Source: Deinococcaceae bacterium (GTDB lineage Bacteria > Deinococcota > Deinococci > Deinococcales > Trueperaceae). Taken from it: a DNA stretch of 15,965 nucleotides. The DNA is taken from contig JBDZWC010000069.1 of NCBI GenBank assembly GCA_040256005.1, positions 1 through 15,965 on the forward strand. Direction: 5' to 3'. Position numbers and translations under genes: made by a program. Position 1 is the first letter of the stretch, and the number at the start of each line of letters is the position of its first letter. Shown here piece by piece: positions 1,395 to 6,888 of the stretch. Below the pieces are notes generated by a model that was not told the origin of the DNA, did no database searches, and was given only the letters and a program-made list of their open reading frames with translations.

Positions 1395-2131
1395 CCGATC
1401 CCCACAGAGGGATCGCGCTCGTGACGGGTTCTGCGGGCGCCATCGGCTCGGCGACAGTTTGTGCCCTCTCAGGCGCCGGCTACGAAGTCATCGGCCTCGA
1501 CCTGTCAGAGCCGGCGGAGAACTCGATCGGCCATCACTACAAGGTCGACGTCCGCGACCAGAGGGCGCTGGAGCAGGTGATCCGTTCGGTCCGTGTATCC
1601 GGACGCCTCAGACACGTGATCAGTATCGCGGGCGGTGCGTTGCCCGGTGAACCAGAGTCCAAGCGAGATCTAGAGGCACTAGATCCCGACCTATTTCGTC
1701 GATCCCTAGAGGCGAACCTGACTTCACACTTCCTCGTCGCCCGAGCCTCGCTCCCGTGGCTGATGGAGAGCGGCGAAGACCGGTCCATCACTTTCACTTC
1801 GTCATTCAATGCGCTTAGCGCCCAAGGGATGCCTGCTTACTCTGCGGCGAAAGCGGGCATTATCGGGTTGATGCACTCGCTTGTCGACCCTCTAGGAAAG
1901 CGCGGCATACGTGTCAACGTCGTAGCTCCCGGGACCATCAGGACTCCACGAACCGAGCGGCTCTGGCAACACAAGGCAGGGCACTTCGAGGGCTTAGAGC
2001 AAGGCACAGCGTTGGGACGGCTCGGCACACCTGCTGACGTCGCCGAAGGCTTCGTGGCGCTGACCAGCCTCAGGCACGTAACAGGGCAAGTACTTGTCGT
2101 CGACGGCGGGCAACTCACCGTGCACCGCTGA
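1391..2131 (+). CDS. Classical SDR family NAD(H)-dependent oxidoreductase
   Basis: TGSAGAIG Rossmann motif, acidic residue after beta2 (IGLD, suggesting NAD preference), catalytic N (EANL), S (FTSS) and YSAAK, plus RVNVVAPG and C-terminal TGQVLVVDGG. Confidence 0.93.
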   Translation: MTDPHRGIALVTGSAGAIGSATVCALSGAGYEVIGLDLSEPAENSIGHHYKVDVRDQRALEQVIRSVRVSGRLRHVISIAGGALPGEPESKRDLEALDPDLFRRSLEANLTSHFLVARASLPWLMESGEDRSITFTSSFNALSAQGMPAYSAAKAGIIGLMHSLVDPLGKRGIRVNVVAPGTIRTPRTERLWQHKAGHFEGLEQGTALGRLGTPADVAEGFVALTSLRHVTGQVLVVDGGQLTVHR

Positions 2132-2400
2132 TTCAGCACCGATCTACCGGGTCATGTGACATTCGCTACTCATGTGATTCATGACTTCTCAGGTCACCTG
2201 AATCGACCGACGGGGACGGCTAATCTGCCCTACGCCGGATCGAGCCCCGAGACGTTCTCTCACTCCTCTAACGGATTACTCACGCTCACTCGGCCCACAC
2301 CGACATAACCTTCCCGTTGGTCCAGCGGACTGACGCTTTCTCCTACGACCAGACCTGCGTTCGTCTGTTGAACCCAAGAGTTCGGCCCCTTAGGGGGTTG

Positions 2401-2476
2401 GTCTCAGAAGCGATGACGCTTGTCCGTGACTTGGGCGCTTGGGACAAGCCGAGCTAGTAGCGCAACCGGCTGAGGC
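2401..2476 (+). ncRNA. Cyclic di-GMP-II riboswitch aptamer
   Basis: P1 GTCTCAG 2401-2407 / CTGAGGC 2470-2476. P2 AGC 2409-2411 / GCT 2453-2455. Kink-turn: GAT bulge plus tandem GA 2415-2416 / GA 2451-2452. P3 GCTTGTCC 2418-2425 / GGACAAGC 2442-2449. Loop TTGGGCGCTTG pseudoknots with AGCGC 2459-2463. 3' core AGTAGCGCAACCGG. This matches the class II consensus (..UGGGCACUU..GAGUUAGUAGUGCAACCGR) with compensatory changes. Confidence 0.92.
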
Positions 2477-2483
2477 TAGCGCA

Positions 2484-2576
2484 GGACCTCCCGTAAGTCC
2501 AACGCAGCCTTCGCGATAACGGACGTCGCCTGTTCCTCAGGCGGGCTGCGGTCAATGGGACGCGGCGGGAAGGTCT
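2484..2576 (+). promoter_or_regulatory. Putative riboswitch expression platform (anti-SD/SD helix)
   Basis: GGACCT-CCCG 2484-2493 is complementary to CGGG-A-AGGTCT 2566-2576, which contains the SD-like GGGAAGG 9 nt before ATG 2583. It encloses stems CGCAGCC 2503-2509 / GGCTGCG 2544-2550 and CGCCTG 2527-2532 / CAGGCG 2538-2543. No U-tract terminator is present. Confidence 0.5.
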
Positions 2577-2582
2577 GGATAG

Positions 2583-4505
2583 ATGCGTTTTGGCTCTTCG
2601 CTAAGTGCTATTGGTCAGCCGTCGACGAGCTTGCGGTTGCCGCACATGCGTTCTTTGGCTGCGATCGCTCTCTTGATATCGGCCTTCATCACCGCCTGCT
2701 CGCAAGGTCCTGACGTGGACCTGCAGACGGAGAACATCCTCGTACGACCTGCCGGCATCGCTTCGGCCGACTCCACTGAGTACGTGGGCGACGAACTCGA
2801 TGGGGCTTCGGTGGCCGGGGTGATAGAGGTCTTCGTCAGGCCCGCCGGTTGGATTCGCGAGGTCCACTACTCGGTCGACAACGGGTTCGTCACGTTCGTG
2901 GCGACCGAAGCTCCGTTCGCGTTCGTGCTCGACACGACGGGCTTGAGCGACGGTTCTCACAAGCTTACGCTCACACCGCGGTTGGCGAACGGCAGGCCCA
3001 AAGGTGGTCTGGACGTGAGCTTCAACGTCGCCAACGACACGGGTGACGGCGGCGGCGGCGACGGTGAGGGTGACGGCGGCGATCAGGGTGGAGGTGGAGA
3101 TGAAGAGCAACCGAACCGGGCACCCACGATCACCTTGGAAGGACCTGCCGAGGCCGTAATAGATGTTCCTACGATCCTGAAGGCCAATGTCTACGATGAC
3201 GGGCTCCCGAACAAGACGCTAAGCGTCAGGTGGTCACTCGTTTCTGGTCCAAAGGACGTGGAGTTCTCGAGCCCGAACGCAGCGATCACATCTGCTACGT
3301 TCCAGGCACTTGGCTCCTACGTACTGCGGGCCTCGGTGACGGACGGGGAGCTTAGCGCGGCGGCCGACCTCGAGGTATCCGTGCAGGAGCCAGACGGTGA
3401 GCCAGACCAGCGAGACGATCCGCTGGATGGCGACTTCGATCCGCCGATAAAGATCACGAAAGGTGGGGTCTACACCGGGCGTTGGGCGAGTGACGATCCG
3501 GACGTCCCTGCAGTACTGATCGACACCGCTGAGCCTGTCACCATCGAGAACTCGGTGCTGACTGGGCCGGGTCACCTCATCTCGACAGATTTCCACAAGA
3601 CTACCCGGCTCGTCGTCCGAAACAGCCAGGGATTCGGGCAGAACCCTGACGTGTACGGCGAGAATCCTGGTCGCTTCATCCACGTTGAGTCGTTCGCTGA
3701 CCTCGTCGTAGAGAACAACTACCTGGAAGGGACATCTGGGATCTACGTTCACAGGTGGCTCGGCGGGGGCTCGGTGAAGATTCGCTTCAACAGGGCCCGC
3801 AACATCGTTGGGCTGTGGTCGGACGGCAACGGATCATGGCTGGACGGCGGGAACCAGTTCACGTACGCCCAGTTCGTTCAGTTCAACGATGTTAGAGGTG
3901 TCAGCGGTGCCGAGATCTCTTGGAACGAGGTCGTCAATGTCGCCCGCGAGAGTCGGACCGAAGACGTTATCAGCATGTACAAGAGCGGCGGAACGACCTC
4001 CAGCCCTATCCGCATTCACGACAACTTCATCAGAGGCTCCTACCCGGCGAAACCGGAGTCACACTCCTTCTCTGGGGGCGGGATACTCCTCGGAGACCAC
4101 GGCGGAGACAACCAGGTCGCCTACCAGAACCAGATCGTCAACGTAGCCAACTACGGCGTGGCCATCGCGGGCGGGGTCAACAACCGGCTCGAATCGAACC
4201 GAATAGTCTCGTCCGGAGCACTTGAAGATGGTACGAGGATTCACGCTGCGAACGTCGGCATCTATATCTGGAACCAGACCGATCATCCGTTCGGTAGCAG
4301 CGCTGGGACAGAGAACGTAGTTGGATACGTTCAGCTCAAGACTGACGGAACACCTGTCCGAAACGACTGGTGGATACCGGATGCGAGTACGTGGACTGGG
4401 AACACGAAGCTGGCGGGGCCGATAACGGCAGCGACTGAACACGCCGAGTTCGAAGCTTGGCAGACCAAGTACACGCAGGCCGGCGTCAGCATCGGGCTTA
4501 ACTAA
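2583..4505 (+). CDS. Lipoprotein: Ig-like domain, Gly/Asp linker, PKD/Ig-like domain and C-terminal probable parallel beta-helix carbohydrate-active domain
   Basis: Hydrophobic signal with lipobox ITA-C (Cys39). Ig-like segment (V.YSVDN...APF.F.LDTTGLSDGSHKL). PKD-like segment (NRAPT...DDGLP...L.V.WSLVSGP...GSYVLR.SVTDG). Residues 283-640 carry recurring x-E/R-N-N/S turn repeats typical of beta-helices. Alternative start at ATG 2646. Confidence 0.8.
   Translation: MRFGSSLSAIGQPSTSLRLPHMRSLAAIALLISAFITACSQGPDVDLQTENILVRPAGIASADSTEYVGDELDGASVAGVIEVFVRPAGWIREVHYSVDNGFVTFVATEAPFAFVLDTTGLSDGSHKLTLTPRLANGRPKGGLDVSFNVANDTGDGGGGDGEGDGGDQGGGGDEEQPNRAPTITLEGPAEAVIDVPTILKANVYDDGLPNKTLSVRWSLVSGPKDVEFSSPNAAITSATFQALGSYVLRASVTDGELSAAADLEVSVQEPDGEPDQRDDPLDGDFDPPIKITKGGVYTGRWASDDPDVPAVLIDTAEPVTIENSVLTGPGHLISTDFHKTTRLVVRNSQGFGQNPDVYGENPGRFIHVESFADLVVENNYLEGTSGIYVHRWLGGGSVKIRFNRARNIVGLWSDGNGSWLDGGNQFTYAQFVQFNDVRGVSGAEISWNEVVNVARESRTEDVISMYKSGGTTSSPIRIHDNFIRGSYPAKPESHSFSGGGILLGDHGGDNQVAYQNQIVNVANYGVAIAGGVNNRLESNRIVSSGALEDGTRIHAANVGIYIWNQTDHPFGSSAGTENVVGYVQLKTDGTPVRNDWWIPDASTWTGNTKLAGPITAATEHAEFEAWQTKYTQAGVSIGLN
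3036..3107 (+). repeat. Low-complexity Gly/Asp/Glu interdomain linker (GGC/GGT/GAC codon repeats)
   Basis: Encodes DTGDGGGGDGEGDGGDQGGGGDEE between the two Ig-like domains. Confidence 0.75.
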
Positions 4506-4556
4506 CTAAGGCGATGAGGTGGGTGGCTCGAGGCGGCGAAGGGAAGTTCGTGGGCT

Positions 4557-5486
4557 CTACATGTGTCGGGCGGTCAGCCATCTGGCCGCCTGTGGCACCT
4601 GGTAGGCTCCGGGGACGGTTGTCATGGTCCAGGCCATCCACCTCCAGAACCACGATGTAGTTGGTCCGAACTGGCTGCGCCTCCGGCGGGCGGCGTCCCG
4701 CTCTCCACGTTGGAGAAGGCGCATGCACTCCCAGACAAGCATCTTTCCTAGGCGATCGTCATAGTCGGCGGAACGACGGCTCGTCTCGCGAGCACCGAGG
4801 TACGCAGTCATCAGCGCTTCCCAAACGGCGTCGTACTTCTTGGAACTCAGCGTGTCCGGATGATCAAGCCACTTATGAATCGGCGCCTCGATCCCGACCG
4901 CCTTCACACCCGCCTGACCCAGCCGCAGGAGCAGATCGACGTCACAGCCGTGTCCCGAGTCACGTGCGAAGTAAAGCCCAGGCAGGTCACGTCTGAACAA
5001 CACCGCGTTTATCGAGAAGTTGTAACCGCGTTTCAATAAGTGCGCTTCCAGGTCATCGATCGCGCCACCAGCTAGCTCGTGGGAAGGCGATAGCGACACG
5101 CGCCGGTGGCCCGGAGCGACCTCTAGCTGCACGCGGCCGATGGCCATTCCGTACTCGGGGTCTGCCTCGATCGCTTTGACCAACGCAGCGAGCGCACCGG
5201 GCAACATCGAGTTGTCAGCAGACATGACCATGACCAGGTCTCCGGTTGACGCCTGGATCGCCCGGTCCCAGTTCGAGGCTAACGGGACGTGATTCTCGAA
5301 CCTCCTGACCACCAGGCGCTCATCGTTGAACCCACTCAGTACCCGTTCCGTCTCGTCCGTTGAGCGGTTGTCGATCACAAGCACCGTCAACGGCTCGTAC
5401 GTTTGGGCTAGCACGCTAGCGACCGCCCGGCCGATGAACTTACCGCCGTTGAAGACCGGTATGGCGACGGTTACATGAGGTTGCAC
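4557..5486 (-). CDS. Glycosyltransferase family 2 (GT-A), ~309 aa
   Basis: VTVAIPVFN, AVASVLAQT, VIDNRSTDET, NWDRAI, and C-terminal DVDLLLRL. The start is moved from track 5549 to GTG 5486, which has GAGGGGG upstream and lies downstream of a TAGACT -10. Confidence 0.9.
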   Translation of the reverse strand: MQPHVTVAIPVFNGGKFIGRAVASVLAQTYEPLTVLVIDNRSTDETERVLSGFNDERLVVRRFENHVPLASNWDRAIQASTGDLVMVMSADNSMLPGALAALVKAIEADPEYGMAIGRVQLEVAPGHRRVSLSPSHELAGGAIDDLEAHLLKRGYNFSINAVLFRRDLPGLYFARDSGHGCDVDLLLRLGQAGVKAVGIEAPIHKWLDHPDTLSSKKYDAVWEALMTAYLGARETSRRSADYDDRLGKMLVWECMRLLQRGERDAARRRRSQFGPTTSWFWRWMAWTMTTVPGAYQVPQAARWLTARHM

Positions 5487-5550: not shown

Positions 5551-5676
5551 AGCTCATCCGCGAGTGTATGGCCCGACCTGCATAGCGGCCTGATGTATCG
5601 TTGTCAACCCATGCGGTTTCGCGCTGACGCGTCTGCTGCTCGTGGCCCTACGAACGTAGCCGTGCTCCACGTGGTC

Positions 5677-6888
5677 ATGCGTTGGGTGATAGTAACGGTG
5701 ATCCTGGGAGTGCTCGTATCGTTCCGTGCGCTTCCAGACGATGCCGTACCGATACCGGTCCGTGCGCCCGAGCTGCTAGGTCAATCTGATATCGCAGTCG
5801 AGCTCTTACAGGGAAGTTTCGACCCGCCCATTCGTATAACAGCTGGTGGGACCTACTCCGGTAAGTGGGCAAGTACCGATCCGGATGTTCCCGCGGTGAT
5901 GGTCATCACAGATGAGCCGGTAACCATTGAGAACTCGATCCTGACTGGCCCCGGCCATCTAGTCTCGACGGACTTCCACACGACCACGGACCTCACGGTG
6001 AGGAACACATACGGTTTCGGACAGAACCCGAACGAATACGGTAGGCCACCCGGACGTTTCCTCCACGTCGAGTCCTTCTCTCAACTCATCGTTGAGAACA
6101 ACTACCTCGAGGGCACGATGGGTATCTACGTCCATCGATGGATGGGCGGTGGAACCGTGAAGATACTGTTCAATCGCGCCCTAAACGTGATCGGGCTATG
6201 GTCAGATGGCGCTGGGTCCTGGCTACGCGGCGATAGCCAGTTCTCCTACGCCCAGTTCGTACAGTTCAATTCTGTGCACGACATACCCGACGCGGAAGTC
6301 GCTTGGAACGAGGTCGTCAATCTGCCATGGCAGAGCCGCACCGAAGATGTGATCAGCATGTTCGACAGCAGCGGGACGCCTGATAGTCCTATATCCGTGC
6401 ACGACAACTTCATTCGCGGTTCGTATCCAGCCGATCCCGCCAACCACTCCTTCAGTGGTGGCGGCATCTTGCTCGGGGACGGCGGCGGCGGCTATCAGGA
6501 GGCGTTCCATAACCAGGTTGTCAGCGTGGCGAACTACGGGATCGCCATCGCAGGCGGACGACATAGCCGGATCGCTAGGAACCGCGTCGTATCCGCCGGT
6601 CTTCTTGAGGATGGAACTCGAATCGCATCCGCGAACGTAGGTATCTACATCTGGAACCAGTATCGAAGGCCCTTTGGCGATAACGCCGGTTCGGATAACG
6701 TGGTCGGCTACGTGCAAAGACCATCGGGCGCTAGCGCGGTACGGAACGACTGGTGGGTTCCCGACGCCGCGAGCTGGAGCGGCAATCGACGGCTCGAGGG
6801 ACCCGTGAGCCAAGACACCGAAAGGGCCGAATTCGACCGCTGGGTACAGAAGTTGCGCACAGCCAACGTACGCTTGGGCGTCAACTAG
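5677..6888 (+). CDS. Exported or membrane-anchored probable beta-helix protein, paralogue of the 2583-4505 C-terminal domain
   Basis: N-terminal hydrophobic segment MRWVIVTVILGVLVSFRA with no lipobox. Nucleotides 5812-6885 encode 358 aa that align without gaps to 3429-4502 (241/358 identical by manual count). The start is uncertain (5593, 5611 or 5677). Confidence 0.8.
   Translation: MRWVIVTVILGVLVSFRALPDDAVPIPVRAPELLGQSDIAVELLQGSFDPPIRITAGGTYSGKWASTDPDVPAVMVITDEPVTIENSILTGPGHLVSTDFHTTTDLTVRNTYGFGQNPNEYGRPPGRFLHVESFSQLIVENNYLEGTMGIYVHRWMGGGTVKILFNRALNVIGLWSDGAGSWLRGDSQFSYAQFVQFNSVHDIPDAEVAWNEVVNLPWQSRTEDVISMFDSSGTPDSPISVHDNFIRGSYPADPANHSFSGGGILLGDGGGGYQEAFHNQVVSVANYGIAIAGGRHSRIARNRVVSAGLLEDGTRIASANVGIYIWNQYRRPFGDNAGSDNVVGYVQRPSGASAVRNDWWVPDAASWSGNRRLEGPVSQDTERAEFDRWVQKLRTANVRLGVN

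Follow-up and report, generated by a model that had tools for sequence, protein, structure and literature searches.

In the class II c-di-GMP riboswitches described from C. difficile, the aptamer acts as a transcriptional ON switch or controls splicing, according to three reports (PMC11477304; PMC9495366; PMC7583470). The C. difficile switches (Cdi2_1 and those of CD2831, cmrRST and the pilA1 operon) share their aptamer class and their association with cell-surface genes with the RNA studied here, whereas in our locus neither a terminator nor an intron was found and an anti-Shine-Dalgarno platform, probably an OFF switch, is predicted. The binding pocket of the class, as seen in the C. acetobutylicum structure 3Q3Z, consists of A13, the A14-U60 pair, A61, A69, A70 and G73 (PMC13715770). 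A review lists c-di-GMP-II for clostridia and deinococcus (PMC9495176); the occurrence of the class in Deinococcus-type bacteria, stated in the initial annotation of this DNA, was already in print.

The locus lies on a 15,965-nt stretch of DNA (the window) from a Deinococcaceae bacterium. Assignment to the class matters little by itself, since Rfam detects the aptamer immediately and Deinococcus-type bacteria are known to carry the class. What goes beyond this is a specific model of OFF switching, together with the signature in the promoter and a beta-helix target yet to be characterised. In c-di-GMP logic, matrix is made when the dinucleotide is high and released when it is low; if true, an OFF translational switch on a matrix-cutting enzyme would complete this logic by RNA alone. 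A search of the open-licence literature gave no study of OFF translational use of a class II aptamer ahead of a matrix enzyme in this phylum. We rate our account as a whole, in which the aptamer heads the leader of a single lipoprotein gene and forms a translational OFF switch in an exopolysaccharide cluster, as somewhat better than an even bet.

Identity and structure of the aptamer

A cmscan search of the whole window, which the initial annotation had proposed with RF01786 and its variant models, gave c-di-GMP-II (RF01786) as the single Rfam match, at 2397-2480 (+). It covers model positions 1-84 and scores 76.2 bits (gathering cut-off 53.5; E 5e-16). This full-length match bears out the class that had been read from the letters; the interval given at that time, 2401-2476, is real and comprises only the inner part of the aptamer. 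With Rfam, covariation and a pocket mapped by spacing to 3Q3Z, membership of 2397-2480 in the class is virtually certain. The GAG (RF03169) and GCG (RF03170) variant models passed their own cut-offs at 58.9 and 57.1 bits, respectively, and both score lower than RF01786. These variant names denote a G-led pocket; the variants belong to the same clan, whereas the pocket here reads A, A, G. An altered-ligand variant identity was rejected because RF01786 outscores both models.

Each of the elements that had been named, P1, k-turn, 8-bp P3, pseudoknot and core, could be read on the + strand of the sequence. P1 has 11 bp, three of them G-U (2397-2407/2470-2480), and is followed by P2 AGC/GCU (2409-2411/2453-2455). 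The k-turn between P2 and P3 has a 3-nt bulge, GAU (2412-2414), and tandem G.A/A.G pairs formed by GA 2415-2416 against GA 2451-2452. P3 is a perfect 8-bp helix (2418-2425/2442-2449), the pseudoknot P4 joins GCGCU (2435-2439) to AGCGC (2459-2463), and the core AGUAG-CG-CAACCGG spans 2456-2469. When pocket residues were assigned by spacing against the 3Q3Z numbering in PMC13715770, all were present: A2408 corresponds to A13, A2409-U2455 to A14-U60, A2456 to A61, A2464 to A69, A2465 to A70 and G2468 to G73.

P1-P4, k-turn, pseudoknot and pocket are the same as in the 3Q3Z aptamer, which has A-U as its central P4 pair where the present copy has G-C; the k-turn here also differs in carrying C.C at 3b.3n. 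This C.C occurs in 2 of 60 aligned aptamers, with A.G in 37/60, and is allowed because 3b=C agrees with the ion-folding rule (3n=G or 3b=C) given in PMC4382518. The aptamer is a canonical copy of a known RNA sensor class and ordinary within it. It lies in the 5' leader, in sense with the gene and 102 nt ahead of ATG 2583, and the same arrangement is found in the orthologous loci L037 and L039.

Covariation among family aptamers

A pattern search of the fetched loci yielded 105 distinct aptamers. Sixty were aligned, and the 45 left out were near-duplicates, length variants and most of the copies from other families. In the 60 aptamers, 86.7% of the cells pair, pseudoknot included, compared to 74.5% after shuffling, where 0 of 500 shuffles reached 86.7%. 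In controls with slid partner strands, pairing drops to 34-39%. Double-sided changes were observed in 22 of the 27 pairs. P4 is 99.7% paired, and one of its pairs covaries between U-A and C-G (41/17). The central P4 pair is an invariant G-C in all 60 family aptamers, and its A-U form was seen in L027, L028 and L030, which belong to other families of the order. Because G-C is present in 60/60, the P4 change is lineage-wide and not peculiar to this copy: the substitution that had been called compensatory is a real change, but a family-wide one that is not special here. Comparison of four sequencing runs revealed no strain variation inside the switch or leader, so no compensatory strain variants could be read.

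The floor of the pocket varies within the alignment. C replaces A13 opposite G in 8/60 aligned aptamers, possibly forming a C-G in place of the A.G floor; copies with this change are found at C186:4298-4382 of the same genome (L003) and in L008, L020, L064, L083, L111 and L126. Judged by their sequences, these aptamers are a possible specificity or affinity variant.

Ligand

We infer with high confidence that c-di-GMP is the working ligand; it is only inferred because class II aptamers are tolerant in vitro. They discriminate poorly, binding c-GpAp at 10 nM or better (PMC9495366), and for a variant engineered from the B. halodurans aptamer an affinity of 11 nM for 3',3'-cGAMP is given (PMC13715770). 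Both values would fit another cyclic dinucleotide in vivo, e.g., 3',3'-cGAMP, which we nevertheless consider very improbable in view of the enzymes encoded by the genome and of the lower scores of the GAG/GCG variant models. The genome has 12 GGDEF and 7 EAL matches. At the position where cGAMP-making Hypr GGDEF enzymes carry Ser, Asp is kept in 11/11 GGDEF domains that cover the site, and no match to SMODS/CD-NTase was found in this 96.8% complete genome.

The regulated gene encodes a beta-helix lipoprotein

The gene under the switch (2583-4505, +) encodes a 640-aa lipoprotein, which we characterised from its ORF by Pfam, AlphaFold and fold searches. It carries a lipobox signal with Cys39, Pfam matches to Big_7 (Ig-like; weak) and PKD, and a beta-helix at the C-terminus encoded at about 3426-4502. 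The C-terminal domain is modeled as a right-handed beta-helix with a pLDDT of 97.6 (AlphaFold, 71 homologues); single-sequence folding of the N-terminal domains gave a pLDDT of 37. Fold matches with Z 22-26 over 250-310 residues include PL6 lyases, the epimerases AlgE/AlgG, tailspikes, the adhesin PfbA, NosD and RbmB. Atlas recognition agrees on the fold, with a score of 2271, just below the 2300 mark. Whereas the fold and the location in a polysaccharide cluster are shared with PL6/PL9 lyases, AlgE/AlgG, RbmB, GH28 enzymes and tailspikes, the present protein is set apart by an identity of only 7-18% to the fold matches, known beta-helix polysaccharide enzymes included, with no single best match. 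No CAZyme family matched the beta-helix domain over the cut-off, and a sequence search for a solved relative of the family found none.

Across the 71 sequences, conservation of E460, D461, H479, D505 and R364 is 89-100%. Such conserved acidic, His and Arg residues suggest an enzyme, to which no specific activity is assigned. The likely role of the protein is to cut or modify the polysaccharide made by its own cluster, but its fold suits adhesins and NosD no less than lyases. About 70 members make up the beta-helix family defined by this target; the family lacks a solved relative and may supply new polysaccharide-active enzymes.

A paralogous beta-helix gene at 5593-6888 (+), 65% identical over 381 aa, has no riboswitch. 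The distribution is patchy: the gene was not found in 11/11 congeners searched, and full matches of the beta-helix family occur in 5 of 128 family genomes. In four of those five (G000, which is the genome studied here, G050, G084 and G057) a copy lies under a c-di-GMP-II aptamer, and polysaccharide genes flank the switch-led gene in G050, G057 and G084. Among 20 metagenome loci the switch was present in L039 only; most of these loci carry remote relatives, and in some the upstream sequence is truncated.

An exopolysaccharide cluster on a probable island

The description of the surroundings as an exopolysaccharide biosynthesis locus is supported by the Pfam matches, which identify a Wzx/Wzy-type cluster with Wzx-like, Wzy_C, Wzc-like, priming sugar transferase, GT2, GT4, WecG and epimerase genes. 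A 404-aa ORF in the cluster (180-1394, +) gave no Pfam or NCBIfam hit. Since the gene that follows 2583-4505 is a convergent GT2 gene, the switch leads one gene, and its placement ahead of a single exported protein instead of the synthesis genes had been recognised correctly in the initial annotation.

The GC content of the contig is 60.6% compared to 68.9%, the lowest among 160 contigs of at least 5 kb, and a search of 11 congeners did not find the Wzy gene. The cluster therefore resembles an acquired island. Three cluster genes of G050 match contig C54 of the present genome with 69-71% identity, which weakly backs the binning of the contig; no contig overlap connecting C4 to other contigs of the genome was found. 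An acquired island raises the idea of an idle relic, i.e., an intact aptamer brought in with transferred DNA ahead of a gene that is no longer switched. The low GC content, the missing homologues in congeners and a window leader that is predicted closed whatever the ligand would agree with this. However, the pocket bases and helices are all intact, and promoter, leader elements and Shine-Dalgarno sequence are kept in three orthologues with diverged spacers, so that we give this explanation almost no weight.

Gene order and strain data gave further observations on the surroundings of the GT2 gene. GT2 has the switch-led gene as its divergent neighbour in L037 and L039. In the window this position belongs to the switch-less paralogue, and the switch-led copy is found on the opposite flank of GT2, suggesting local duplication and rearrangement. 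The strain in run X11 has many differing sites in or beside GT2 (4547-5071) and one site in 2100-3000, hinting at local recombination.

Promoter region

A predicted -10 box, TAACCT (2306-2311, +), is conserved in L037 and L039 and places the predicted transcription start near 2318. Upstream of it, a TCAC half-site (2280-2283, +) lies where an activator of the class II CRP type would be expected to bind. The pattern TCAC-N22-TAnnnT is present in all three orthologues (2280-2311 in the window), and the promoter search gave no hit to a sigma-70 consensus. Spacers of 21-23 nt were found upstream of 28/93 aptamers, compared to 1/93 on the antisense strand, and every other spacer length occurred 0-2 times; about 10 of these 28 belong to GH26 promoters that are orthologous to one another and carry the complete GTGA-N6-TCAC. 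Within the window alone the pattern is not significant, with 4 occurrences against 2.4 expected by chance.

We take the spacing from TCAC to the -10 box to match that of class II CRP promoters, in which a full TGTGA-N6-TCACA is centred near -41.5. The genome encodes a CRP protein with the RETVTK helix of DdrI. In D. radiodurans, DdrI binds TGTGA-N6-TCACA (PMC11253593). Compared to class II CRP/DdrI promoters, the present promoter has TCAC 22 nt ahead of the -10 box with conserved spacing, and compared to the full TGTGA-N6-TCACA its upstream half is degenerate, leaving a putative site.

A possible upstream promoter, TCAC-N23-TAATCT, lies at 2194-2226 (+), with a similar match in L039 and none in L037; it would place a transcription start near 2233. 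Two copies of TCATGTGA, 18 nt apart, were noticed at 2152-2177, between the end of the SDR gene, which they closely follow, and the two promoter-like sites; they might form an operator. Run X18, which is labelled RNA-Seq and whose RNA status is a guess, gave near-identical contigs at 2246-2497 and 2616-2766 with a depth of about 3. Because the first of these begins upstream of the predicted start, the signal may come from DNA or from the second promoter-like site.

Leader and expression platform

The leaders of the window, L037 and L039 have in common the aptamer, CCAACGC, a small hairpin, GGCYGCG and GCGGGAAGG. The last is the Shine-Dalgarno (SD) region (2565-2573, +), which is invariant in the three orthologues. 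Its conservation 5-9 nt upstream identifies ATG 2583 as the start codon, and a start at ATG 2646 was rejected since the conserved SD precedes 2583 instead. There is no intrinsic terminator in 2480-2750, and the single terminator-like hit lies upstream, at 2315-2335, with 0.5 expected by chance. A transcriptional terminator platform was rejected because no terminator lies between aptamer and gene. The same holds for a riboswitch-ribozyme of the Cdi2_1 type: no group I intron follows the aptamer, the window has no other Rfam match and the leader is just 102 nt. A special 5' hairpin at 2318-2376 was also discarded, being no stabler than shuffles in the three orthologues (z -1.0, 1.2 and -0.9). 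We regard control at the level of translation as quite probable.

Three parts of the leader (+ strand) could produce such control. With P1 formed, the anti-SD strand 2484-2494 is predicted to pair with 2565-2576 in an 11-bp helix with A2570 bulged. The switching strand CGCAGCCUU (2503-2511) can pair with either the P1 3' strand (2472-2481) or 2544-2550, with predicted duplex energies of -16.5 and -16.4 kcal/mol, respectively, compared to -14.8 kcal/mol for P1 itself; it is conserved in all three orthologues and appears in the RNAalifold consensus. Furthermore, RNAalifold predicts an open-state hairpin of GGCUGCG (2544-2550) with CGCGGC (2561-2566) that leaves the SD free and has one column with U-G, U-A and C-G pairs.

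Folding calculations, which exclude the pseudoknot and ligand energy, were used to examine these states. With the aptamer enforced in the window leader, 2484-2494 covers 2565-2576 and the SD is unpaired with a probability of 0.17, as compared to 0.95 in the alternative fold. When the P1 5' strand was omitted from the three leaders, RNAalifold gave a P1-breaking helix together with the 2545-2550/2561-2566 hairpin and a mostly free SD, in a consensus platform with a double-sided change in only 1/30 pairs. The P1-breaking helix dominates in growing transcripts of all three orthologues (0.51-0.89 in the window at ends 2510-2540), and the RBS-open fold carries it in 3/3.

Opening of the RBS in the window leader costs 17.1 kcal/mol, compared to 8.5 kcal/mol with shuffled linkers (z 3.2), whereas RBS closure in L037 and L039 does not beat shuffled linkers (z 0.4 and -0.8). 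The bound state makes opening costlier in 22/24 settings for the window and in 24/24 for L037, but in 9/24 for L039, for which 12/24 settings gave the opposite and 3/24 equal costs. The sign was reversed for the window leader in 4/4 runs when the RBS window was widened and the 3' end extended. We consider the OFF direction fairly likely.

The reverse, an ON switch in which ligand-stabilised P1 frees the RBS and the protein is a matrix adhesin or polymer-maturing enzyme produced together with the polysaccharide, appears unlikely to us, at roughly one chance in five. The RBS could be freed from, e.g., a possible second anti-RBS element, CCAGACCT (2349-2356, +), which is complementary to 2571-2578. 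An upstream RBS complement of 8-9 Watson-Crick nucleotides occurs in all three orthologues (shuffle fractions 0.024, 0.009 and 0.019), and its duplex energies prefer the own RBS in only one of the three. An ON switch would also agree with the C. difficile class II switches, which PMC11477304 describes as switching ON and leading adhesin and pilus genes, with L039, where from the predicted 5' end opening is easier when bound in 11/12 settings, and with the fold search, in which the adhesin PfbA and the epimerases AlgE/AlgG are tied as best match. On the other hand, the calculations favour closure when bound in most settings for the window and in all for L037, and the 11-bp anti-SD helix of the window is fully compatible with P1.

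Of 50 leaders, 31 allowed the start to be inferred and entered a broader comparison of RBS closure; the 19 dropped comprised 3 with a start beside P1, 7 with spacers longer than 150 nt and 9 whose start calls were weak. RBS closure by the post-aptamer strand exceeds the shuffled mean in 25/31 leaders, with z >1.5 in 16; the free state opens more readily in 16/31 and less readily in 7. Release of the P1 3' strand alone opened the SD in 3/47 leaders and closed it in none. Among the three orthologues, the anti-SD strand showed no self-over-cross preference for its own RBS, and covariation between the two was not borne out. Closing and opening SD folds both exist and are conserved, and equilibrium models switch uncleanly between them.

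For the full window leader at equilibrium, the SD is closed also without ligand (unpaired 0.17), and the open fold is some 10 kcal/mol less favourable. The ON state must therefore be kinetic. The closed SD in both states would also suit a leader that is poorly translated throughout and in which the ligand alters Rho-dependent termination or RNase access. Rho is encoded in the genome and the predicted 5' extension is pyrimidine-rich, but the conserved leader elements centre on the RBS and the termination site is a candidate only; we consider control of transcript fate improbable.

The OFF model can be described as follows. Transcription would start near 2318 from the -10 box, aided by a CRP/DdrI-type activator. 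Without ligand, 2503-2511 would capture the nascent P1 3' strand, trapping the anti-SD strand 2484-2494 in a loop; 2545-2550 would then pair with 2561-2566, leaving the SD open for ribosomes to load. With c-di-GMP bound, P1 would be held, 2503-2509 would pair with 2544-2550 and the anti-SD strand would cover 2565-2576. At low c-di-GMP, the surface-anchored beta-helix protein would thus be made, giving matrix release, and at high c-di-GMP its repression would allow matrix build-up. The three orthologous leaders make this switching model directly testable. A more far-reaching reading is that a class II aptamer was rewired into a kinetic translational OFF switch under a CRP/DdrI-type promoter, silencing undescribed surface-anchored beta-helix depolymerases inside the very clusters they dismantle, on an island that moves between genera; we put this forward tentatively, as possible but short of probable.

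Distribution and other targets in the lineage

The initial annotation had called the class relatively rare, which does not hold in this lineage. The genome has four c-di-GMP-II copies, 33 of 41 relatives match (29 over the cut-off), and a DNA search matched 109 of 128 family genomes, nearly always across the aptamer alone. The D. radiodurans control also matches c-di-GMP-II. A search for c-di-GMP-I gave nothing in this genome or in the control genomes and so carries no information. A lipobox ORF lies downstream of 4/4 copies in this genome and in 38/54 loci picked by Rfam search alone, compared to 145/3114 coding-like frames of the genome under the same lipobox rule; since many are orthologues, the 38/54 loci are not independent. 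Pfam searches of 36 targets identified GH26, GH99, polysaccharide lyase, beta-helix, subtilase and Ig/PKD domains, AlgF and one GGDEF protein, with no hit in 14/36. In the relative L131, an aptamer precedes a GGDEF gene, a possible feedback loop.

The N-terminal module of lipobox and Ig/PKD domains is common to many other riboswitch-led genes (loci L063-L086), where it is joined to different catalytic domains (GH99, Pel9-like, GH115-like); the aptamer is present in 15 of 20 loci scanned. From these sequences, lipobox, Ig/PKD module and aptamer look like a reusable switch-plus-anchor cassette. A second target class consists of small proteins (about 150-220 aa) that are secreted but lack a lipobox (L089, L093, L130, L133-L135, L142, L027 and L028), which gave no Pfam or NCBIfam hit where tested and whose genes are sometimes consecutive, with a separate aptamer for each.

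The family often carries c-di-GMP-II aptamers in tandem, at distances of 150-350 nt (L023, L069, L075, L078, L080, L095, L132, L138-L140 and L143-L145), and in the L132 tandem each aptamer has a TCAC/-10 match. A different platform was seen at C226:192-273 of the same genome (L004) and in L099 and L105, where a Shine-Dalgarno sequence GGAGG overlaps with or directly adjoins the P1 3' strand and lies 8-10 nt ahead of the start of a Big_5 lipoprotein.
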